A stretch of DNA of 31,402 bases from a virus (lineage: Duplodnaviria > Heunggongvirae > Uroviricota > Caudoviricetes): IMG/VR virus record IMGVR_UViG_2645727991_000019, positions 1 to 31,402 of that record; one strand, given 5' to 3'. Within the stretch, counting starts at the first letter, position 1, and each line of letters opens with the position of its first letter. The notes below the pieces were generated by a model. That model searched no databases and was not told the DNA's origin. It was given only the letters and a program-made list of their open reading frames with translations. This document shows positions 6,664 through 27,795 of the stretch, piece by piece. A program made the translations under genes and the position numbers.

Positions 6664-7257
6664 CTATTTGTCCCGGTTGGCTAAGGGATGACACAATTTA
6701 TTCTTTGTCGCTGATGAGGGGAATTTTTTATAGAGCGTGGACAGGCCAATATCAAAAATCAGCGCCACGCGTTGACGTGATTCACCCGCAGCCAGCAACC
6801 GTCCTGCCTGTTCCCACTCACTCGCGGTGAGCTTCGGACGTCTGCCACCAATACGACCTTTAGCTCTGGCCGCTTCCAGTCCGGCGCGTGTCCGCTCGAC
6901 AATGAGTTCTCGTTCCATTTCAGCCAGGGCACCCATCACATGAAAGAAAAAACGCCCCATCGGCGTGCTGGTATCAATAGCATCCGTCAGGCTGCGAAAA
7001 TTAACGCCGCGTTCGCGCAGTTCCTCAACCAGAATGACCAGATGCCGCATACTACGCCCCAGCCTGTCCAGCTTCCAGACCACCAGTGTATCCCCCTCCG
7101 ATAATGTCCTGAGCAGTTTTTTCAGTCCCGGTCGGTCGGACTTAGTGCCGCTGATTTTATCCTCAAAAATCAGCTCACATCCTGCGCACTCCAGCGCGTT
7201 ACGCTGCAATTCCGTGTTCTGGTCATTTGTTGACACGCGTACATAGCCAATAAGCAT
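6664..7257 (-). CDS. Serine site-specific DNA invertase (Hin/Gin/Cin/Pin family)
   Basis: From the Met at 7257 the protein starts MLIGYVRVSTNDQNTELQRNAL..., the canonical resolvase/invertase N-terminus with the catalytic Ser in the VRVST motif. A strong AGGGGGA Shine-Dalgarno sits 5 nt upstream of this ATG. It lies immediately outside the left crossover site of the invertible segment. Confidence 0.9.
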   Translation of the reverse strand: MLIGYVRVSTNDQNTELQRNALECAGCELIFEDKISGTKSDRPGLKKLLRTLSEGDTLVVWKLDRLGRSMRHLVILVEELRERGVNFRSLTDAIDTSTPMGRFFFHVMGALAEMERELIVERTRAGLEAARAKGRIGGRRPKLTASEWEQAGRLLAAGESRQRVALIFDIGLSTLYKKFPSSATKNKLCHPLANRDK

Positions 7258-7312
7258 GAGCATCCCCCTGAATAAAAACCGGAGATGATGCCAGTTGCCC
7301 GTTATCTCTGCA

Positions 7313-7338
7313 TTTTCATAAACGTTGGTTTAGGAGAA
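7313..7338. repeat. Left 26-bp inversion crossover site (hix/gix-like)
   Basis: TTTTCATAAACG-TT-GGTTTAGGAGAA is an imperfect palindrome with a central TT dinucleotide. Its right half-site matches 11 of 12 positions of the half-site at 9189..9214 in inverted orientation. Confidence 0.8.
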
Positions 7339-7836
7339 GGCTCAGCATTGCCTGTTGGCGTACCTGTTCCGTGGCCCTCAGCCACTCCGCCAACAGGCTG
7401 GCTGAAATGCAACGGAGCAGCTTTTTCTGCTGAAGAATACCCGGAACTGGCAAAGGCTTACCCGACAAATAAATTGCCTGATTTACGCGGTGAATTTATT
7501 CGTGGCTGGGATGACGGACGTGGTATGGATACGGGGAGGGCAATATTATCCGCTCAGGGCGATGCCATACGTAATATCTATGGTGAGTTCAAGACTGTAA
7601 ACACCGAAAATTATTCAATATGGGAATCAGTAGGCTCTTTTAAGGGGGCAGTGGTGCCTTTGAACCCCTCAACGAACAATAGTTATTTCTCCTTAATCAG
7701 AAGTATGGTGACAGAAAGAACAGATGGCGCTGTTTACCCAAAAGTGATTGGCCTTGATGCTTCAAGAATTGTTCCAACTGCAAACGAAAACCGTCCACGT
7801 AACATCGCCTTTAATTATATTGTGAGGGCTGCATAA
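7313..7836 (+). CDS. Silent alternative tail-fibre C-terminal cassette (Sv'-like, tail-collar motif); promoterless in this orientation
   Basis: The open frame continues in phase from the GLGE codons of the crossover site and encodes ...VPVPWPSATPPTGWLKCNGAAFSAEEYPELAKAYPTNKLPDLRGEFIRGWDDGRGMD..., the classic phage tail-collar motif of Mu S and P1 S variable fibre parts. The ORF-track start at 7285 precedes the crossover site and is probably not a real start. Confidence 0.8.
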
Positions 7837-8429
7837 TGAAACCTGTTTTTGATGAAAATGGGCTGGCTACAGTGCCGGGTGATATGCGTTGTTTTTATTA
7901 TGATGCAGTAACGTCTGAATATACGGGCTGGTCTGATGAATATATTAATACTGGCGTAAGTATGCCCGCCTGTTCCACTGGTATTGACCCGGGCGAATAC
8001 ATTCCGGGGAAAGTGGCAGTATTTACGGGTAAGGGATGGAGCCATGAAGAAGACCACCGCAATGAGACTGTTTACTCAATCGAAAATGGCGCAGCTGTTA
8101 CAGTGGATTATATCGGTGCCATCAAAGACGGTTATGTCACGCTTTCACCGTTAACGCCATACGATAAATGGGATGGTGAGAAATGGGTGACAGATACTGA
8201 GGCACAGCATAGTGCCGCACTAGACGCGGCAGAAGCACAGCGCCAGTCGCTGATTGATGCTGCAATGGCTTCCATCAGTCTGATTCAACTGAAATTACAG
8301 GCCGGGCGGAAGCTGACGCAGGCAGAAACAACCCGACTTAACGCCGTGCTGGATTATATTGACGCGGTGACGGTAACAGATACCAGCACTGCGCCGGATG
8401 TCATCTGGCCTGAACTGCCGGAGGCGTAG
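7836..8429 (+). CDS. Tail fibre assembly protein (chaperone for the silent cassette, U'-like)
   Basis: 197-aa ORF directly following the silent fibre cassette (the ATG overlaps its stop). Its C-terminal region (LDYIDAVTVTDTSTAPDVIWPELPEA) resembles the C-terminus of the opposite-strand tfa (LDYLDTLELVDTSGAPDIEWPTPP). Confidence 0.82.
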   Translation: MKPVFDENGLATVPGDMRCFYYDAVTSEYTGWSDEYINTGVSMPACSTGIDPGEYIPGKVAVFTGKGWSHEEDHRNETVYSIENGAAVTVDYIGAIKDGYVTLSPLTPYDKWDGEKWVTDTEAQHSAALDAAEAQRQSLIDAAMASISLIQLKLQAGRKLTQAETTRLNAVLDYIDAVTVTDTSTAPDVIWPELPEA

Positions 8430-8841
8430 GCCATTCAATATCTGGCGCACCGGAAGTATCGACCAGTTCCAGTGTGTCCAGATAATCCAGCCACAAATTA
8501 TATTGCGCCAGTTCCTCACCTTTCAGGCGACCAATCGCCGCTTTACCAGGCCATTGCTTACTGTTTATGTATTCGTTGACCTGATTAATCAATTGCTGCT
8601 TTTCCAGTTCGGCTGCGGCAATTTGTTCCTCATGAGTTGGCGGTGGAATATCAATCCATGCAGGCATTCCGTCGATGACACCTCTGTATTTTCCTTCTGG
8701 TGCTTCCTTCATAAATTCGGCGGCAACAGTGTCGTCAATTTCGATTCCATCATCGGGCCATTCGCCGGATTCCTGATAAGCGATTTTAAGCTCCACAGGG
8801 AAAAACGCATTTTTATCGGCACTGAAAATATATTTCTGCAT
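8401..8841 (-). CDS. Tail fibre assembly protein (chaperone for the currently expressed fibre, G/U-like)
   Basis: 146-aa ORF immediately downstream of H, converging on and overlapping the 3' end of the plus-strand tfa; it carries the conserved tfa C-terminal motif. Confidence 0.85.
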   Translation of the reverse strand: MQKYIFSADKNAFFPVELKIAYQESGEWPDDGIEIDDTVAAEFMKEAPEGKYRGVIDGMPAWIDIPPPTHEEQIAAAELEKQQLINQVNEYINSKQWPGKAAIGRLKGEELAQYNLWLDYLDTLELVDTSGAPDIEWPTPPAVQAR

Positions 8842-8843
8842 TT

Positions 8844-10028
8844 CTACCGTCCTATCGAAATATAACTGAATCTGTATTGCTGTGAGATATCACTGGTTGC
8901 CACACGCCACGCTGAATTACTGATATGTTCAAAATTTACAGACAAAACCTGCAGGGCAGGATTCGACGGGTCTGACTGAACGGCATCAGACATAACACTG
9001 ACTGAAACCATCGGCTGATTAGGGAATGGTATAGGGAAGTGTCCACTGATAAAGCGGGTCGTGTTTCCTGAAAAAGTGCCAAACTGAACAATATATCCAC
9101 CTGGTAGCCTGAACCATCCCGAACCAGAAGCGAATGCTCCCATATCCGGTATCTGATTATCTCCTGTGCCCACATCCCTTTTCGCCGCTTCTCCCAAACC
9201 AAGGTATGCGAGAAGACCAGCTACATCCTTTCCACTCAAATGAGTCAGCGTCTCATCCAGTGGCTGCTTACCTGACAGCGCATTGTTAATGGTGGCGCTG
9301 AATTTCGGGTCATTGTTGATAGCTGCGGCAATTTCTTTCAGTGTGTCCAGCGTGTCAGGGGCACCGTTAATCAGAGCGGTAATAGCGGCCTGTACAAACG
9401 CAGTGGTCGCAATCCGCGTGGTGTTATTTCCTGCGGCAGGCGTCGGCGCTTTTGGTTCTCCGGTAAATGTCGGATTATGTTTCTGTGCATACTGGGTATG
9501 AGGGTCCTGTGCGGCAATGTGGTTTCTCATCTGGTCATCCACATACAGCTTTAATTCCAGGACTTCATCATCCACGTATTTACGGGTCGCCAGTACCACC
9601 GACGGGTCGATTTTCAGCGTGATGGCTTCGGTATTCGTGACAACCAGAATCATGCGGATAGTCTGGGTACGACCGCTGCCTTCCTGCAACTGCGGTTTGT
9701 ACGTTTCCGGGCAGTTCGCCACCGCAATGAGTACGCCTTCATCATCATAAAGCCCAATCTCACGGATCCAGAATCCGCCCTCGTTCTCAGGGATGATTTG
9801 CTCCGCAATAATCTGGCTCTGGTTGTTCGGGTCAACACTCAGAAGATTCAGCGGCGCGATGCGTTTCTGGTTAATCAGTTTTGTCTGTGCCGGGTCTGGT
9901 GTCGGCAAGACACCATTCGCATCACCAACGGCCATTTGCGTCAGATTCAGCTTACTGCCGAGCATCGTCGCGTTAGCCAGCCGTGCTGCGCCCTGATTAG
10001 TCAGAATGGCGTAGTATTTCACTGTCAT
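8844..10028 (-). CDS. H: Tail fibre protein H (constant N-terminal part fused to the currently expressed variable C-terminal cassette)
   Basis: The N-terminus MTVKYYAILTNQGAARLANATMLGSKLNLTQMAVGDANGVLP... is the conserved P2-family fibre N-terminal domain. The reading frame passes through the crossover site at 9189..9214, where it encodes AYLGLGE, and continues into the variable part. Confidence 0.88.
   Translation of the reverse strand: MTVKYYAILTNQGAARLANATMLGSKLNLTQMAVGDANGVLPTPDPAQTKLINQKRIAPLNLLSVDPNNQSQIIAEQIIPENEGGFWIREIGLYDDEGVLIAVANCPETYKPQLQEGSGRTQTIRMILVVTNTEAITLKIDPSVVLATRKYVDDEVLELKLYVDDQMRNHIAAQDPHTQYAQKHNPTFTGEPKAPTPAAGNNTTRIATTAFVQAAITALINGAPDTLDTLKEIAAAINNDPKFSATINNALSGKQPLDETLTHLSGKDVAGLLAYLGLGEAAKRDVGTGDNQIPDMGAFASGSGWFRLPGGYIVQFGTFSGNTTRFISGHFPIPFPNQPMVSVSVMSDAVQSDPSNPALQVLSVNFEHISNSAWRVATSDISQQYRFSYISIGR
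9189..9214. repeat. Right 26-bp inversion crossover site (hix/gix-like) inside H
   Basis: TTCTCCCAAACC-AA-GGTATGCGAGAA; its left half-site resembles the gix/hix half-site consensus and is the inverted copy of the half-site at 7327..7338. Confidence 0.8.
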
Positions 10029-11541: not shown

Positions 11542-11889
11542 TCAACTCACAGGGATGGTTAACGAAAGTGGCTGGCCGGTGTCGTTGTGCTGACCGGTTA
11601 ACGTGACCGTCATTCGCCCGTCAAAACTGCGCGCCGTGGTGACGGATGACAGGGTGACGCGGGGTTCCCATTTCAGCACCGCCATGTAACAGGCGACCTT
11701 AATCTGCAACTCAAGCGCCGGGGTCTGCGGCTGGTCAATCATTGATGCCAGCAACGAGCCGTAATCACGACGCATCACCCGTGAGCCGACCGGTGTGCGC
11801 AGGATATCGCCGATACTCTGGCTGATATGCTCAAGGTCAGTGACCGTCAGGCCATCACTGCGATTCATTCCGAGATAACGCGCAGTCAT
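11542..11889 (-). CDS. W: Baseplate protein W (gp25-like)
   Basis: 115-aa ORF between V and J; position and size match P2 gpW. Confidence 0.88.
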   Translation of the reverse strand: MTARYLGMNRSDGLTVTDLEHISQSIGDILRTPVGSRVMRRDYGSLLASMIDQPQTPALELQIKVACYMAVLKWEPRVTLSSVTTARSFDGRMTVTLTGQHNDTGQPLSLTIPVS

Positions 11890-12521
11890 AGAGGTCCCCC
11901 TGTTGTGCCGCCACTGTCGCCGGGGTGTTTATGGGTATGCAGTACCTTACCGTTTGATGAGAGTTCACCGCCGGTGTGTTCAATGTTGCCGCGCATCGTC
12001 CCGCCCTTCTGTACTTCCAGCGTGCCGGTAATCAGCCTGTTGGTGCAGACCACCTCCGGTGTGTCCAGGGTGACGCGGGTTGACGCTTTCACCATGACCA
12101 CCGGCACCGTGGCGGTAACAGAATCAGAAGCCGTCACGCTGGCCGTTTTAATTCCGCTTACCGTCAGTGCACTGGTTTCGGGTTCATACTCAATCACCGC
12201 CCCGTCAGGGAAACGGATATGCAGGGCATCAGCCGACGCAGACGGCGCAGGGTTATCGCCGGAATAAATCCCCGGCAGAACAAACGCCGTGTCGAGTTCG
12301 CCGCCCACGGACAGAATCAGCACCTGTTCCCCCACGGAAGGTGCCCACCATGTGCGCGAACGCCCGGCGCGATGGGTCAGCCACTGAAGCCAGTCGGTGC
12401 ACATGCCGCCGGTCTGCACACGGCAGCGACCGGCGTTAAGGTCGGTTTCGACGACAAGGCCGGTACGAATCATGTTGCGCAGTGCGCGCGCGAGTTCCTG
12501 AATATTTGCGAGAGTGTTCAT
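11886..12521 (-). CDS. V: Baseplate spike/assembly protein V
   Basis: From the Met at 12521 the protein starts MNTLANIQELARALRNMIRTG... (211 aa), matching the P2 gpV N-terminus as I recall it. The longer ORF-track start at 12557 is probably not used. Confidence 0.88.
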   Translation of the reverse strand: MNTLANIQELARALRNMIRTGLVVETDLNAGRCRVQTGGMCTDWLQWLTHRAGRSRTWWAPSVGEQVLILSVGGELDTAFVLPGIYSGDNPAPSASADALHIRFPDGAVIEYEPETSALTVSGIKTASVTASDSVTATVPVVMVKASTRVTLDTPEVVCTNRLITGTLEVQKGGTMRGNIEHTGGELSSNGKVLHTHKHPGDSGGTTGGPL

Positions 12522-12598
12522 AACGGGAAGGATGCCGCTGGATGATACCAGCAGCAATCATGGAGGATTCTGTCAGCTGTGATACAACATAATAAATA

Positions 12599-13354
12599 TT
12601 AGTTGTAGCACTTCTCTATAATCTTCATACACTCCTCATGAGCTAAATCATGGCTGTCAAATTCTTTATTAAAAAAGAAGAAAAACGCCTTCTTAACCTG
12701 AGGCATTTCAATAAAAATAAATTCATCAACCTTATGAAAGAAATGAAAACTCTTGTTTGATGTTTCAAAAACCATCAAAGAATTATGTTTTTTATCCTTC
12801 CATTTCGACATCAGATTGCGTCGCGATTTTCTTATAATCCTGAAGACATCCTCCGGTGTCGTATCGACATTCCCCCAAAACATTGCAACCGGGAAGTTTG
12901 CAAGGAAAGGGATATAATCCCCCCCTTTATACCTGAGAAAGCGGGTCCGTAAATCCATTAATTGCAACTTAAAGCCCATGTATTGCAACCACCATATGAT
13001 GCAGTCATATTCATAATCTGTTAACTCATCGCCCCTCTTTTCCGTAAGAAATTTCTTCAGGTTATACTCAAACGCTCCCAGCAAATCAGAATTGCACACT
13101 CTGCATGCTGGTACAGTAGCTTTAATGTAATGAGTTGACTGATTATTCTTTTTATTAATTAAAGATTTTTCAGCATTTGACTCAAAGGCCCACTGAGGAA
13201 TAATGTGCTCACGAGTAATATCGTCAGAACTCCCGCATAACACACATATATCAGCATTATGGTCAGCAATAATACAATCCATAACTTTCTTTTGAGAATG
13301 CTTTACTCTTTTTCTCAAAATGGAAAACTTTTTATCCACAAACACCCGTCTCAT
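12599..13354 (-). CDS. AT-rich accessory gene encoding an HNH-motif nuclease-like protein, at the S-V junction (P2 orf30 position)
   Basis: The protein contains CVLCGSSDDITREHIIPQWAF ... CRVCNSDL, i.e. CxxC, (D/E)HIxPQ and CxxCN, the HNH beta-beta-alpha-metal signature (compare Cas9 HNH DHIVPQSF). GC content is markedly lower than in flanking genes. Its start ATG overlaps the S stop codon (ATGA). An alternative start at the internal Met (MDCIIADH..., 13282) is possible. Confidence 0.7.
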   Translation of the reverse strand: MRRVFVDKKFSILRKRVKHSQKKVMDCIIADHNADICVLCGSSDDITREHIIPQWAFESNAEKSLINKKNNQSTHYIKATVPACRVCNSDLLGAFEYNLKKFLTEKRGDELTDYEYDCIIWWLQYMGFKLQLMDLRTRFLRYKGGDYIPFLANFPVAMFWGNVDTTPEDVFRIIRKSRRNLMSKWKDKKHNSLMVFETSNKSFHFFHKVDEFIFIEMPQVKKAFFFFFNKEFDSHDLAHEECMKIIEKCYN

Positions 13355-13809
13355 ATAACATCTTTCGATAGAATCACTAATAACTCCCTTTCTATCAATT
13401 GTATAGATTCCTTGTCAAAACCAAATAACTCACGAACAGGATATTCCACCACAGCACTATTACGCCCCGGCTTATCCCTAAGCCCTAATTGATGTACTCG
13501 CGCAATTCGTTGTACTCCGCTGGCAAACGCCACCACCGCCGCACTCTCGCTACCTGTTGCTTTCATAAACCGGTTAGTGCGTAATTTCACAAACATTTCC
13601 CGCTTTATCCGGCCTTTCTTATTTCGTACTGGTTGGTTTTTTCTCGGTACATACGGCGTACCATCCGGGGCTTTTTGTAATTTAATTCGCTGCTGCTGGC
13701 GCTGGCGCAGCTTCTTCGCAATATCTACCGCCAGTCGCCGACGCCCTGACGGTGACAGCGACTCAATCAGTCCGGTCAGCCGGTCTTCAAAACGCTTAAA
13801 CTCATTCAT
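13351..13809 (-). CDS. S: Tail completion protein S
   Basis: The protein starts MNEFKRFEDRLTGLIESLSPSGRRRL..., and its position between R and V matches P2 gpS. The last 30-40 codons lie in AT-rich sequence continuous with the downstream accessory gene. Confidence 0.88.
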   Translation of the reverse strand: MNEFKRFEDRLTGLIESLSPSGRRRLAVDIAKKLRQRQQQRIKLQKAPDGTPYVPRKNQPVRNKKGRIKREMFVKLRTNRFMKATGSESAAVVAFASGVQRIARVHQLGLRDKPGRNSAVVEYPVRELFGFDKESIQLIERELLVILSKDVI

Positions 13810-22725: not shown

Positions 22726-23055
22726 CGCCCGCTTCATGGGGCGGTTTTGATGCAATACATGAGCATCGTAATGCCATATCGTGACAGGATTATAGAACAT
22801 GAAGGTATACTAACTTACACATGCAAAAAAACGCACACTCAGGCATTCTCTTTGGAATACAATATGGTAAAAATATGATCATTTGAAGCTGCATATCCGC
22901 GCAGATTGAAATCAATGATGCTGCCCCTTCGTTAAGACAGCCAGGCCGCAATCTCTTGAGCTCAAGTGGACATCTAAGACAGAAAAACAATTTAAAGGCA
23001 AAGTTTTCGTAATGGTATCTTTGTCACAGCACACGCTAAAAAGGAACTAAACCTC

Positions 23056-24120
23056 ATGAGCACTCAGCAAGTCCTCAACATCCCTACAGCCGTATCGCAA
23101 GCGACCATCGAAAAATGGTTGAAAGGACTGGAACAGACAACGGAATTAGCCTTTTTTCGCCGTGTTGGCGGGCGGCATGGCTTCAATGTTACGAGCCGCT
23201 GGGCAAGTACATTGGATAACTTGAATAAAACTCTGAATGACCCATCGAAGCAAGGTACGCCTGCAAACTTTTCAAATCTCCGTTTGATTACGTTAAAAAT
23301 AATCACTAGCGTAAACCATTATTATTCAATTGATAGTATTAAATCAGGAACCATTAATTTAATACCAAATATAATCAACTACCCTCACCTCGATAAAACA
23401 TTTAGCTCAGTATTTCCAATAAAACTTGATGATAATACAGGACTTCCTTCGACTCCTGGGCATTTCATTACTTCCATCGAAAAAATGGGGGATGGTATTG
23501 CTGTAATATATTCCTATATTATTTTAAGAAAAATCCAAGGAAGGAGTAAGCTACGTAGCAATCAATATCCAGAGCAGTACTTCAACACTGTTTTCATCCC
23601 TAATGATTTAAGCCGTATAGAATATCGGGTTGATAAATCACTAGGTAAAAGAGCGTCTGAAAAAGCGATGGCAGATTTGCGCGCAAAATTTAATGAATTA
23701 CTCGTGGAACTTAATATTAAGTTAGCTGTTGAAACTATAAATTTCTACAAAGCAATTTCCAATATTTACCTTGACAAACAATATGGAAGACTTGTTCAGG
23801 TTAATTTCCTTGATCCAAATGGAGATGAGGATGCTGTTCTTCGTTGTAGAACAGACCCCAATTATGATGCCCGTTATCGCGAGGTTGTATCTAAAACTCA
23901 GAACGGAACACCTCGCTCATTGACCCTTGAAGTTTCTGGCGTTGCAGTGCGATTAGATAGTAAAGTTGCAAACGAAACAATTTCAAATGAAATTGGTTTT
24001 GAACCCAGCAAAACTGATTGGTCTACAAACAAATTTTGTGGGGATTTTTATTTTACACAAACAGCAGATCATCAGGTGCATTATGGGGTGATAAATGATT
24101 TACTCACAAGAGCGAAATAA
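23056..24120 (+). CDS. Hypothetical protein, first gene of the low-GC cargo operon (354 aa); no family recognised
   Basis: ATG start with an AAGGA Shine-Dalgarno about 10 nt upstream. Composition is AT-rich, and I see no Walker or other recognisable motifs. Confidence 0.75.
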   Translation: MSTQQVLNIPTAVSQATIEKWLKGLEQTTELAFFRRVGGRHGFNVTSRWASTLDNLNKTLNDPSKQGTPANFSNLRLITLKIITSVNHYYSIDSIKSGTINLIPNIINYPHLDKTFSSVFPIKLDDNTGLPSTPGHFITSIEKMGDGIAVIYSYIILRKIQGRSKLRSNQYPEQYFNTVFIPNDLSRIEYRVDKSLGKRASEKAMADLRAKFNELLVELNIKLAVETINFYKAISNIYLDKQYGRLVQVNFLDPNGDEDAVLRCRTDPNYDARYREVVSKTQNGTPRSLTLEVSGVAVRLDSKVANETISNEIGFEPSKTDWSTNKFCGDFYFTQTADHQVHYGVINDLLTRAK

Positions 24121-24529
24121 AAAAATGCGCTCATTAGTGTATAAACAAAGAGTACTCCTGGAGAATGCCGGAAGCTCTTCTGTTTTCATAAATAATGATT
24201 CTCACATATATTATACAAATTTACTAGAATATGTAGAGGGTGATCTTGATCGTAATATTTATACAATCCCAGTATTACGAAAAGCCATAAAAACTGACAA
24301 TTATGAACATTTGCTACGAGTTGTTCAATTTTTTAGTAGCAATACCTCTTGTTTATTTAACGTTAAATATTGCTACGAACTAGAAAACATGGAGTTTGAG
24401 GACATACAAGCTGATGAATATACCAACTATATATTAAACGGAGTTGAACCTGTAACTGCCAATGGTTCTGAAATTGAAGACTTCAATCCAAAATATCTTT
24501 CATTTTATTGCATAATAAACCTGGATTGA
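24095..24529 (+). CDS. Hypothetical small protein, second gene of the cargo operon (144 aa, or 134 aa from the Met at 24125)
   Basis: ORF overlapping the end of gene 1 by 26 nt if it starts at 24095 (GGGGTG Shine-Dalgarno-like sequence upstream), or starting 4 nt after the gene 1 stop if it starts at 24125. It ends 5 nt before the gene 3 ATG. Confidence 0.65.
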   Translation: MIYSQERNKKMRSLVYKQRVLLENAGSSSVFINNDSHIYYTNLLEYVEGDLDRNIYTIPVLRKAIKTDNYEHLLRVVQFFSSNTSCLFNVKYCYELENMEFEDIQADEYTNYILNGVEPVTANGSEIEDFNPKYLSFYCIINLD

Positions 24530-24534
24530 CTGTC

Positions 24535-25389
24535 ATGAACAAACAACAAATCACATGTGAGTTAGGCAAAAGGGTTCATTTTGAAGATGAAGCGAGTTTT
24601 ATTGAAACATTATACTCGGATATAGAAGTCATAATAAAACTAATGGAGCAATCTAGTGACAAGTATTATTGTGATGATGAAGATAAACTAAGCCATACAA
24701 TTGTAGCCTCTCTTGTACACCTAGGTTACGATGCAACCGAACAAACAAAAAAAAATGGAAGTGTGGACATAACCGTTCGTCCGAAAAATGGAGGATATAC
24801 ATGGATTGCTGAAGCAAAAATCGGATACGGGAACCAAAAAATATTCGAGGGGCTACTTCAGTTGCTTACTCGCTATGTTAAAAGAGATAATCATGCAGGC
24901 ATGGTTATCTATTATCAAAAATCAAAGTCATCTTATCATTTCAAACAATGGCTGAAATACATATACAACCATGAGTGGAAGGATTATTGTACAAAGAAAG
25001 GGTCATTAAAAAAAGCGACTCCGCTACTTTCTCATTTAAAAAGTACGGTTTGTCCGAAAGTCAAACAAGGCTGTTGTTATGCTGACATTGATGTCATCCA
25101 ACCTTCGACTGATGGTCTAAAACTTCGCTGCTTCTATATTGACGTGCATCATGACCCAATTGACAGTAGTGGTTTAAAGAATAAGTCAATCGCCTTTGGT
25201 CAAGCCCAAAATAGAATTAGAGATTTATATCACTTATGGAAGACAGGACAGTTCGACGGCAGTATGATAGATGAATTATTTGAAGAAATAAAAATATATC
25301 ATAGCAATGAACTTGACGAAGAATATGAAGATGAAGATGAAGATGAAGATGAAGATGAAGATGAAGACTCGAATATAAACTCGAAATGA
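24535..25389 (+). CDS. Hypothetical protein with a PD-(D/E)xK-like nuclease core motif and an acidic (ED)n C-terminal tail, third gene of the cargo operon (284 aa)
   Basis: ATG at 24535 (the ORF-track start at 24508 is a TTG). The motif GSVDITV followed 12 residues later by WIAEAKIG fits a hydrophobic-D ... E-x-K restriction-endonuclease-fold signature. The C-terminus reads EEYEDEDEDEDEDEDEDSNINSK. Confidence 0.75.
   Translation: MNKQQITCELGKRVHFEDEASFIETLYSDIEVIIKLMEQSSDKYYCDDEDKLSHTIVASLVHLGYDATEQTKKNGSVDITVRPKNGGYTWIAEAKIGYGNQKIFEGLLQLLTRYVKRDNHAGMVIYYQKSKSSYHFKQWLKYIYNHEWKDYCTKKGSLKKATPLLSHLKSTVCPKVKQGCCYADIDVIQPSTDGLKLRCFYIDVHHDPIDSSGLKNKSIAFGQAQNRIRDLYHLWKTGQFDGSMIDELFEEIKIYHSNELDEEYEDEDEDEDEDEDEDSNINSK
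25327..25368 (+). repeat. Tandem hexanucleotide repeat (GAAGAT)6 plus GAAGAC, encoding the (ED)n tail
   Basis: Perfect tandem GAAGAT units are seen directly in the sequence at the 3' end of cargo gene 3. Confidence 0.9.
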
Positions 25390-25402
25390 ACACCAAGAAT
25401 CA

Positions 25403-25436
25403 CCCCATTAAGTTTAGACATCCTAACTTGATGGGG
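25403..25436. terminator. Putative bidirectional terminator hairpin between the convergent cargo operon and gene A
   Basis: CCCCATTAAGTT - 10-nt loop - AACTTGATGGGG forms a 12-bp stem with one mismatch, followed on the plus strand by AATTGACTTTT. Confidence 0.5.
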
Positions 25437-25524
25437 AATTGACTTTTAAGTCTGTAACCCTAGCCATCAAAAATAGATTCATTTTAAATAAAAATATATC
25501 CGTTACGCCCCAAAAAAAATTGAA

Positions 25525-27795
25525 TTAATTAGGAAAAACACTCCCAGTTGGAATTTTTTTAAATTTATATTTCCTCCCATCGAAACATACTGTCGCACCG
25601 CGTGCTAATACCTGTGGTTCCCATTGATTCGGCGTAATACCCTCCTGAGCCAACTCGAATCTTATACGTGGCGTCTGTTCCCGTTCAGCTTTTGTCATTC
25701 GTCCTGAGGGCGCTATCTGATAAGGTTTTAATGGCTCACAGCTCTTTTGCTGGCGATTTGGTCGTGGCGCATCGTGTTTTAGTGCGCATCTGAGCACCGT
25801 CACGACTTCAGGGTCATCCCAGCCGATAACCCCGCGCTCAATCAGATTCAACACCGCTGCTGCTTGCTCAGAAGGTATGGATGTCATAGCAGGATCGCCA
25901 CCGCTAGTTAGCTTTCCACAGTTATTGACAGGACTCCGAGGCGCGGCGATGCCGCTTTTTAAAGTCAAAGGCTCAACGACCGGAACTTTCGGCACAATGC
26001 GCCAGTCCGTCGTTCTGGTGATATGAATATGACGCGCGCCGAGATGCGGCGCGTAAATGCCGACCACTCTCTCGACTTCTTCCTCGTACTCGTTAACTTC
26101 ATCCGACGGACTACGGGCAACCCTGACAGTCTGACAATCGCGCGGAACATTTGCCCCACCCTGCGCGCTGATATACAACGCAAAATCACCACTGTCTGCG
26201 GCAGCGCGTGCAGCCTCGACGCGTTCGTCAAACTCATCAGCAATGCTGACGCCGCGAGGCAATTTGCGTAGTTCACGGTAAGCCCCCATTGTCGGCAGGC
26301 CAACCGTTTTAAATTGCGGAATGCGCCACGTTGATGCCCATGCGGTAACAGCCGCGGCAGTGTCTTTCAGCGGCCTGCCGGTATCGTTATCGAGCTGACC
26401 ATCCAGTGCATAGCCATCGATGTTTTTTGAGATGTATTTCGCGATATACCCCGCAGCACCGCCCCGGTTAAGGTGTTTTGCCTGAAAACGGTTTCGCGCA
26501 GCTCCTCTTTCGTCGCCATCCTCTTTGAGCGCGTAGCGACGCATGATTTCAATAATCTGGTTACGCTGGCGTGGATTACAAAAAAGCATCATATGCCAGT
26601 GCGGCGTTCCGTCGTGGTGTGGCTCGACGACACGCAAACCGTAGACCTGTAAATCATTATCCTTGAATGCCGTTCGCATCAGGCTCCAGATATGGCAGAG
26701 ATAACGCTGCGCATCCTTTGGATTAAATGCCTCATCGTTCCAGCCGTGATTTAGCTGGACGGTTTTACTTTCGCCTTTTCCGACCTGACGTGTCGGGTGA
26801 TACTTTGACGGCGCGGTCAGCGTGATAAACATCCCCACATCACCCTCTGCTGCGGCGTAACGCTCAATACCGGCAATGGTGTTCATCAGCTCCATCCGGC
26901 GAATTTCAGGATTAGAAATACTGCCCATCACCTTACTGATAAGGTCGATGCGCTCGCCGGTTTCCCTGTTTTCGAGATCACACGATTTAAGAAATTCCAG
27001 ATTTGCCTGGCGGCGTGCACGCACATCACGAATGGCATGTTTACTGGCATAAGGAGAACGGTCTTTATTGACCTCCCCGACAGCAATCAGTAACGCCTCA
27101 TGCCAGCGCATACGCTGGCCTTTGAGCTGATGAGTCCACCACTCATCGTTAAACAGACGGGCAATGGCAGAATATGCCTGCCTCGTGGTCATCTGTCCTT
27201 TACGGTATTTTTTCCAGTAAAGCGGGGAAATATTGAAAGCACGTGCAGCGCCAGCAACATGACCATAGAGGTGAGCCTGCGCCTCATCCGTAAACAGCGA
27301 TTCTTTTTCGCCATGTGCATCCACCCAGGCATCGCTGAGTTCCTCATACATCATGAAAAGCTGCGATGAGATACGGGCGGCAAACTTTTTCAGCTCCTTG
27401 TCATTCATTCCCGGCAGGCGCGCATAGTGGTCACGCTCTGCCAGAAACAGCAACGACGCGTCGGTGTTCATTTCATGGCGCTGATTCACACGCTCAATGC
27501 GCGGCCATAAACGACGCTGAAAAGTGGATGTGAGGAAATAAAACCCGTGCACCGGGCTTTTATTGCGCCGGATGTAGTCATAGCGTGAAGTAAACAGCGA
27601 GCGCAAAAAGTAAGGCAGGCGGTTAATCGTGGATAAAACACCTTGCACCTGACGCATCTCGTCACGTGTAAGGGGTCTTTCGCGCCCGACGGCCTCGCGT
27701 GGCGCGTTCCATGCATAAGCACCGGTAAACGTCTTACCGGTGCCTGCGGCAAATGCTGACGGAGGGACAAAACGCCCGGAGGCTTTAACGGCCAT
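25525..27795 (-). CDS. A: Replication initiation protein A (rolling-circle nickase)
   Basis: Large ORF; from the Met at 27795 the protein starts MAVKASGRFVPPSAFAAGTGK..., matching the P2 gpA N-terminus as I recall it. The ORF-track start at 27837 adds 14 residues and would overlap the upstream gene by 53 nt. Confidence 0.88.
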   Translation of the reverse strand: MAVKASGRFVPPSAFAAGTGKTFTGAYAWNAPREAVGRERPLTRDEMRQVQGVLSTINRLPYFLRSLFTSRYDYIRRNKSPVHGFYFLTSTFQRRLWPRIERVNQRHEMNTDASLLFLAERDHYARLPGMNDKELKKFAARISSQLFMMYEELSDAWVDAHGEKESLFTDEAQAHLYGHVAGAARAFNISPLYWKKYRKGQMTTRQAYSAIARLFNDEWWTHQLKGQRMRWHEALLIAVGEVNKDRSPYASKHAIRDVRARRQANLEFLKSCDLENRETGERIDLISKVMGSISNPEIRRMELMNTIAGIERYAAAEGDVGMFITLTAPSKYHPTRQVGKGESKTVQLNHGWNDEAFNPKDAQRYLCHIWSLMRTAFKDNDLQVYGLRVVEPHHDGTPHWHMMLFCNPRQRNQIIEIMRRYALKEDGDERGAARNRFQAKHLNRGGAAGYIAKYISKNIDGYALDGQLDNDTGRPLKDTAAAVTAWASTWRIPQFKTVGLPTMGAYRELRKLPRGVSIADEFDERVEAARAAADSGDFALYISAQGGANVPRDCQTVRVARSPSDEVNEYEEEVERVVGIYAPHLGARHIHITRTTDWRIVPKVPVVEPLTLKSGIAAPRSPVNNCGKLTSGGDPAMTSIPSEQAAAVLNLIERGVIGWDDPEVVTVLRCALKHDAPRPNRQQKSCEPLKPYQIAPSGRMTKAEREQTPRIRFELAQEGITPNQWEPQVLARGATVCFDGRKYKFKKIPTGSVFPN

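Follow-up and report, generated by a model that had tools for sequence, protein, structure and literature searches.

An AT-rich HNH-like gene as exchangeable cargo between the tail genes S and V of a P2-like phage

The gene and its cassette

The window analysed here is the whole of a stretch of 31,402 nucleotides (nt) of viral DNA (Caudoviricetes; IMG/VR record IMGVR_UViG_2645727991_000019, positions 1 to 31,402), the genome of a P2-like E. coli phage. Between the tail-completion gene S (13351..13809, minus strand; Pfam Phage_tail_S, E 2.5e-29) and the baseplate spike gene V (11886..12521, minus strand; Pfam Phage_base_V and Phage_spike) lies a single long open reading frame (ORF) of 251 codons at 12599..13354 on the minus strand. 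We refer to it as the accessory nuclease-like gene, or nuclease gene for short; its predicted product of 251 amino acids appears to join an N-terminal HNH_5-like His-Me finger domain to a C-terminal part of about 150 amino acids. The gene is mobile cargo and is not tied to phage tails.

The guanine-plus-cytosine (GC) content sets the gene apart from its surroundings. Windowed GC ranges from 0.29 to 0.44 over 12500-13500 and from 0.55 to 0.65 on both flanks, and by gene it amounts to 0.36 in the nuclease gene, 0.47 in S, 0.60 in V and 0.56 in R, with 0.517 for the whole window. An earlier note on this DNA, made from the sequence alone, had described an AT-rich gene between S and V, a GC drop that begins inside the 3' part of S, and an ATG that overlaps the S stop codon. 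All three observations hold. The 251 codons have a GC of 0.36 against 0.56-0.60 in the flanks, GC declines toward the end of S from 0.53 (13600-13799) through 0.47 (13400-13599) to 0.375 (13300-13499), and the ATG of the nuclease gene (13354-13352) shares the tetranucleotide ATGA (13354-13351) with the S stop codon TGA (13353-13351).

The overlapping ATG is probably not the conserved start of the gene, to judge from the aligned homologues. Fifteen of 19 begin five codons further downstream with "M(D/E)KKF", a position that corresponds to a GTG at 13339 in the window and would give a protein of 246 amino acids; the NCBI annotation of close relatives uses this GTG-equivalent start (246 amino acids) as well. 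Ribosome-binding sequences are weak at the ATG and the GTG alike. Since both candidate starts lie within 15 nt of the S stop, a dependence of nuclease translation on the translation of S appears plausible.

No recognisable sigma-70 promoter was found upstream of the nuclease gene on the gene strand, and the sigma-70-like matches from a lenient scan are weak and not conserved (TTGACA-18-TAGAAA occurs in this lineage alone), no more of them than AT-rich DNA would give. Neither side of the gene has a terminator, the sole hairpin being weak, inside the ORF and within chance expectation, and no terminator-like site follows S in the window. Having no promoter or terminator of its own, the gene therefore appears to be wired into the late O operon, and would be transcribed with it by read-through that continues into the V promoter region.

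Gene S itself is a mosaic. R, V, W and J share 97-100% identity with their P2 counterparts, S only 55%. Codons 1-26 of S (13732..13809, minus strand) are protein-identical to P2 and Wphi, and DNA and protein alignments place the left recombination joint after codon 26. This joint (window position 13732, codon 26/27) is abrupt and lies inside an essential gene, and beyond it identity to P2 and Wphi is about 50%. Codons 27-106 (13492..13731, minus strand) represent an alternative S allele whose identity is about 50% with P2 S and 89-98% with E. coli prophages that have different cargo between S and V; prophages holding a Pycsar or PDC-S59 gene there share this allele. Codons 107-152 and the stop codon (13351..13491, minus strand) form an AT-rich 3' end which, according to the S alignment, is linked to the cargo: it shows 33-39% amino acid identity to the S of P2, Wphi and the Pycsar- and PDC-S59-carrying prophages, and 46-63% to the S of nuclease carriers of Klebsiella, Enterobacter and Yersinia, with which it has the motif SIQLIE(K/R)ELL in common. 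Where prophages without the nuclease gene match this S allele at the DNA level, the match ends at codon ~95, 107 or 114.

The right boundary of the cassette lies at ~12558, where the megablast matches of 73 phage records stop (query position 259); from there on toward V the window is again nearly identical to other P2-like phages. A putative late-promoter activator site, GTTGT...GACA (12570..12588, minus strand), begins 10 nt past the nuclease stop, and its spacing to the V start equals that in Wphi; it aligns with Wphi, with KC618326 and with the activator-binding site annotated for the P2 V operon, and its presumed function follows the P2 annotation. Judging from these alignments, the import was a cassette of S codons ~107-152 together with the nuclease gene. 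The earlier note had proposed that the acquisition replaced the 3' end of S, and comparison of S C-termini and junctions bears this out, codons 107-152 being carrier-specific. The mosaic is nevertheless larger than proposed there and two-layered, and comparable replacements of the S 3' end accompany other cargo as well.

A nucleotide block in the S 3' end, TCTATACAATTGATAGAAAGGGAGTTATTA (13375-13419, 30-45 nt), which includes the near-palindrome CTATACAATTGATAG, is conserved among carrier phages of four genera with a mean pairwise identity of 0.82-0.83. As a promoter, operator or recognition site it was rejected, since other parts of S reach the synonymous conservation of the block (0.63-0.67) and the nuclease gene surpasses it. 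This conservation is unexceptional at the codon level and therefore gives no evidence of an embedded element.

The S-V slot, the gene family and its distribution

The S-V site has been described as one of three moron regions of P2-like phages (PMC6823313). In Wphi and KC618326 it is empty and consists of a 66-nt spacer only, and in P2 it holds orf30. The E. coli strain ST2747 (NZ_CP007394; locus L016, 441-2343) has a complete Pycsar system in the slot, with the PycTM effector (E 8.5e-29) followed by the PycC cyclase (E 1.5e-128), located on the S strand 15 nt past the S stop and combined with a distinct S 3' end. In E. coli CFSAN061770 (locus L015, 1047-2291) and S6aCHROMc (locus L017, 991-2235) the slot is occupied, on the opposite strand, by a 414-amino-acid AAA-type "ATP-binding protein" that matches the PADLOC candidate PDC-S59 (E 5.8e-31) and comes with a cargo-specific S 3' end. 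The slot, variously empty or filled with orf30, Pycsar, PDC-S59 or the nuclease gene, is thus a cargo and defence hotspot. The nuclease gene has the properties of such cargo: it is non-core, has a foreign GC (0.36 compared with 0.56-0.60) and is replaced by unrelated genes in sibling phages, and its tight co-oriented packing behind S is not peculiar to it. The S-V slot is less studied than the old/tin and Z/fun hotspots of P2-like phages, and its cargoes (Pycsar, a PADLOC candidate, an orphan nuclease) each bring their own 3' end of the essential gene S. Second ORFs between the nuclease gene and V were observed in a Klebsiella carrier (locus L007, 5926-6576; 216 amino acids, opposite strand) and in locus L021 (7785-8828; 347 amino acids, co-oriented), neither of them with a Pfam or PADLOC match.

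The gene is rare and patchily distributed. Among 50,697 phage records it is present in R18C only (two records), and one phage among 75 matched P2-like records possesses it. Complete E. coli genomes contain it at 79 places (77 of 5426 genomes), all of them chromosomal and with 95-99% identity, and plasmid carriage was looked for without success; in both of the E. coli loci that were opened, the gene is flanked by S and V and belongs to a P2-like prophage. As P2-type V was counted at 1795 places (1574 E. coli genomes), ~4.4% of the P2-type prophages carry the nuclease gene. With this patchiness and its GC of 0.36 the gene is an acquired extra, and not the universally conserved late-operon component of normal GC that the earlier note had contemplated as an alternative.

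A search of 5.8 billion proteins recovered 45 clusters, from Escherichia, Klebsiella, Enterobacter, Yersinia, Kosakonia, Citrobacter and Erwinia and, at 41% identity, one Bacteroidota protein. The copies are mostly intact, with clusters of 547 and 104 full-length members compared with 23 and 5 truncated ones. The ratio of nonsynonymous to synonymous substitution rates (dN/dS) is 0.12-0.17 relative to the copies of R18C and E. coli ECC-1470; in comparisons across genera, where synonymous sites have reached saturation, the proportion of nonsynonymous differences (pN) is ~0.2. The nuclease gene is real and under purifying selection. In a profile search of 1.84 billion representatives 34 proteins fell below E 1e-30, mostly full-length with ~250 amino acids, and 883 below 1e-3, mostly a sister family of ~330 amino acids that has only residues ~25-130 in common and whose members are all named "hypothetical" or, automatically, "HNH endonuclease". 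Full-length homologues, with identities down to 37-41%, are spread over many genera of bacteria.

In Klebsiella, Enterobacter, Yersinia and Kluyvera the nuclease gene occupies the same S-V site, 13-15 nt past S. These copies of other genera are 66-70% identical to that of the window, the neighbouring structural proteins 52-82%. Enterobacterial-type P2-like loci with a 67-68% identical nuclease also appear under the titles "Sporobacter termitidis" (a metagenome-assembled genome, L020) and "Chryseobacterium sp. 18061" (L021), which probably reflect contamination or mis-binning rather than the true hosts. The nuclease gene has a GC of 0.33-0.37 in every P2-like host, and of 0.22-0.38 in other bacteria, even in a locus of 0.63 GC.

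Homologues outside P2-like phages are found in mobile or island-like surroundings. In Erwinia sp. S59 (locus L010, 5001-10744) a 62%-identical copy ends a conjugative transfer operon (TraU, TraG_N). Behind it come an integrase and a large KAP-family NTPase, and from its gene content this arrangement looks typical of the cargo or defence region of an integrative and conjugative element (ICE). Full-length copies of ~40% identity were found in Vibrio, Photobacterium, Shewanella, Psychromonas, Halomonas, Paraglaciecola, Aquimarina, Desulfobacter, Dechloromonas and one Gracilibacteria genome, and such copies sit in chromosomal islands (Vibrio, Shewanella, Halomonas, Bacteroidota and others). Among 124 ORFs adjoining the non-phage homologues the commonest family is Phage_integrase (n=5), and no recurrent partner gene is present. 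An enrichment of defence islands, for which the same 124 ORFs were scanned, was not convincing. The sister family adjoins Shedu SduA_C and SLFN_AlbA_2 genes in Paenibacillus, and T5orf172, an integrase and a D5_N primase in a metagenomic element; in a third case it is located among housekeeping genes.

HNH assignment and possible roles

The HNH core extends from C37 to N88 (13091..13246, minus strand). The earlier note had read a complete HNH signature in the protein, and the motif itself stands: C37-x2-C40, E49-H50-IIPQ and C84-x2-C87-N88 are present, the residues C37/C40/E49/H50/C84/C87/N88 are unchanged in an alignment of 20 family members, and C37, C40, E49, H50, W55, C84, C87, N88 and W122 are invariant among the query and 48 sister-family proteins of 16-23% identity. 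The search of HNH families gave a divided result. Of 49 distant relatives 35 match Pfam HNH_5 (PF14279) on their own, with a best E of 2.8e-7, whereas the query reaches 16.6 bits (E 0.0078, model positions 1-21 of 56) and stays below the curated gathering cut-off of 27.5 bits; a match at the level of the fold was not obtained either.

The AlphaFold model built from the family alignment has a predicted local distance difference test score (pLDDT) of 79 and a predicted template modelling score (pTM) of 0.82, and a model of the domain only (residues 26-112) a pLDDT of 60. The modelled core runs from CxxC through a strand (46-50) ending in E49-H50, an insertion of ~25 residues with low confidence (loop 61-73, within the motif) and a second strand (80-84) to a long helix (85-105) that opens with CxxC and N88 (C84/C87/N88). 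We interpret this arrangement as the predicted beta-beta-alpha topology of His-Me finger nucleases with an inserted loop. Residues ~100-251 are modelled as helices and a four-stranded sheet. Foldseek comparison of the model with PDB and BFVD gave nothing with E < 0.1, PDB sequence searches with the protein and the family profile found no HNH protein, NCBIfam contains no significant model match for the query, and the C-terminal ~150 residues resembled no known fold in the searches run. A full-length match exists to phrog_10503 (E 3.2e-181), a family listed with function unknown. Remote homology and predicted topology together support the HNH identity.

We tentatively regard the nuclease gene as a single-gene accessory nuclease, an exchangeable cargo of the S-V slot for conflict with competing DNA. 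According to this reading an intact accessory ("moron") gene would sit in a known variable slot of P2-like phages, and the cassette of the last ~46 S codons and the gene may have come by homologous recombination from another P2-like phage lineage. The product would be a solitary metal-dependent nuclease, its N-terminal HNH_5-type His-Me finger held by a four-cysteine zinc site, with H50 as the likely general base and N88 as the likely metal ligand; the conserved C-terminal domain of ~150 residues presumably sets target choice or activation. The protein might cut the DNA of competitors (heterologous phages, other mobile DNA) to the benefit of the phage or the lysogen. It would act on its own, with neither a methylase nor an immunity protein nor an ATPase at its side, and be expressed from the late O operon by read-through and coupled to the translation of S. 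We favour this account because defence genes fill the slot in other prophages, the gene turns up in phage, ICE and island settings alike, no partner accompanies it and it is under purifying selection.

Several observations weigh against it. The defence role suggested by the earlier note found a counterpart in the slot, which holds Pycsar and PDC-S59 elsewhere, but not in the protein itself: PADLOC-DB 2.0.0 gave no significant match (best E 0.022 for the query, none for ten relatives), and the sequence comparisons point to no homology with any tested defence protein. Few defence models occur near the non-phage homologues (PDC-S31, PDC-S02, a type IV restriction enzyme, MkoC). Expression appears to be late and lytic, and not in the lysogen, unlike the wiring of the P2 genes old, tin and fun, which are lysogen-expressed. 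The divergence of the nuclease, moreover, is about that of the structural genes and fits long residence better than the fast turnover that has been reported for P2 defence cargo (PMC13586616).

The rival that has to be taken most seriously, although we consider it unlikely, is a free-standing homing endonuclease ("intronless homing", compare T4 mob and seg). A nuclease made late would cut the S-V region of P2-like genomes without the gene, for instance in a mixed infection or upon entry of a related phage into the lysogen, repair would transfer the gene and, along with it, the diverged S 3' end, which would also render the carrier immune. Such a process would account for an HNH ORF standing alone between a pair of conserved essential genes, co-oriented, tightly packed and without promoter or terminator of its own, for its patchy presence (~4.4% of P2-type prophages) at the same site in P2-like phages of Escherichia, Klebsiella, Enterobacter, Yersinia and Kluyvera, and for the strong divergence of the linked S 3' end from nuclease-free alleles; HNH_5 is moreover classed with the T4 MobA-E group (PMC5714182). 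Cargo-linked S 3' ends, however, likewise accompany Pycsar and PDC-S59, which need no endonuclease, and the breakpoints vary (~95, 107, 114); ordinary recombination therefore suffices. Homologues in an ICE and in chromosomal islands lie far from any S or V, Pfam detects no NUMOD, IENR1 or similar DNA-binding module, and strong purifying selection with mostly intact copies is a poor fit to the decay cycle of homing genes. That the protein is not an active nuclease, and instead a non-catalytic zinc module (CxxC...CxxC) which binds nucleic acid or protein, e.g., as a regulator or anti-defence factor, is highly improbable: the alignment to HNH_5 below the cut-off over the first 21 of 56 model positions, the lack of a structural neighbour in the searches and the low confidence of residues 61-73 within the motif would agree with it, but E49-H50 and N88, and not the cysteines alone, are invariant down to ~20% identity, and distant relatives match HNH_5 in 35 of 49 cases, with E values as low as 2.8e-7.

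A helper of the lytic cycle, made with the tail genes to damage host DNA, process replication or recombination intermediates or aid packaging, is improbable in our view. Placement in the late operon and likely coupling to S translation would suit it, as would the maintenance of the gene at the same position in divergent P2-like phages, with a divergence like that of structural genes, and its presence in the viable, efficiently lytic R18C (PMC6823313). Against this, ~96% of the P2-type prophages and nearly all sequenced P2-like phages are without the gene, which is therefore dispensable, and the persistently foreign GC (0.33-0.37 in all P2-like hosts) and the non-phage copies argue for cargo. 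P2 also has its own terminase with an endonuclease subunit, and the nuclease gene is far from the packaging genes; the packaging role that the earlier note had raised finds no support. The missing promoter and the place within an Ogr/delta-activated late operon raise the idea of a defence switched on in trans, which we judge quite improbable: a prophage would make the nuclease only when a P4-type satellite or a heteroimmune P2-like phage supplies the activator. The intruder would thus be sensed by the Ogr/delta-activated late promoter of the prophage, with the nuclease either cutting it or aborting the cell and the C-terminal domain picking the target; Pycsar, in the same slot and with the same wiring, would follow the same logic.

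Should the gene turn out to be a one-gene system against phages or satellites, it would add a family missed by current defence-finding tools, with a C-terminal domain without structural relative; should homing be true, the gene would provide an example of intronless homing in temperate P2-like phages. To the specialist a nuclease in this place is unsurprising, as nucleases are frequent phage cargo. With R18C available as a viable carrier phage, experiments on the gene would be inexpensive.

Elsewhere in the window, a second AT-rich island (22800-25800, GC 0.33-0.40) occupies the old/tin ("TO") position between the portal gene Q and the replication gene A. It comprises three co-oriented ORFs (23056-24120, 24095-24529 and 24508-25389) without Pfam match, of which the one at 24508-25389 weakly matches the PADLOC candidate PDC-S54 (E 1.6e-7), and is likely to be uncharacterised defence cargo. 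The region 6664-8865 contains a serine DNA invertase (Resolvase and HTH_7; 6664-7263, minus strand), adjoined on the plus strand by a tail-collar fragment (7285-7836) and a tail-fibre assembly protein (7836-8429) that face minus-strand tail-fibre genes; the arrangement suggests an invertible segment for host range, as with Mu Gin or P1 Cin.

Comparison with known systems

The closest known counterpart is ORF16 of phage R18C (QDP43509.1; MN016939, 9380-10120; 741 bp), which is the same gene, with 97% protein identity, the same position between S and V and the same diverged S allele. It was published as a hypothetical protein that replaces orf30, for which PSI-BLAST was uninformative, in a phage that is viable and efficiently lytic (PMC6823313). 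The gene itself is therefore already in the literature, and the present analysis adds its interpretation as HNH, the make-up of the cassette and the larger family around it.

The earlier note had also considered a correspondence to P2 orf30, which is not borne out. Identity with orf30 (NP_046770.1) was rejected on a BLASTP E of 0.51 over 36 residues and on its opposite strand. Like the nuclease gene, P2 orf30 occupies the S-V interval; it is rich in AT, non-essential and considered a horizontal acquisition (PMC6823313). It differs in being located on the opposite strand, between the annotated O-operon terminator and the V-promoter activator site, and in lacking a Pfam or PADLOC match, whereas the nuclease gene is co-oriented with S and V and has no terminator-like site after S.

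With Pfam HNH_5 the protein appears to share the pattern CxxC ... EH(I/V)xP ... CxxCN, the four-cysteine zinc site and, in the model, the beta-beta-alpha topology; it departs from this family in the ~25-residue insertion that splits the motif and in a C-terminal domain that lies outside it. HNH_5 falls into group 1 or 8 of the His-Me finger nucleases of Jablonska et al. 2017, a group that includes T4 MobA-E (PMC5714182). The nuclease gene resembles the latter as a solitary, co-oriented HNH ORF between conserved phage genes, endonuclease-like, sporadic among close relatives and with a diverged flank. In contrast to T4 MobA-E it has no recognisable DNA-binding modules (Pfam finds neither NUMOD, IENR1 nor another homing-type module in the query), its family is not confined to phage or intron contexts and has homologues in an ICE and chromosomal islands, and the mosaicism of the flank occurs with non-nuclease cargo as well.

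Nucleases of this kind are also known from defence. In Septu the HNH nuclease PtuB is paired with the ATPase PtuA, and the protein of the window is comparable to PtuB as an HNH-type nuclease of the sort employed in phage defence. PF14279 has been used to annotate HNH partners of AAA15/21 ATPases (PMC11464382). Unlike in Septu, no ATPase gene adjoins the nuclease gene in the examined P2-like or other loci, and no PADLOC Septu match was obtained. McrA-type enzymes are type IV modification-dependent enzymes in which a prophage-borne HNH domain is combined with a reader domain. By analogy, the nuclease gene may likewise encode a prophage-borne single-polypeptide HNH enzyme without methylase, the second domain of which could read the target (PMC5714182 and general knowledge).

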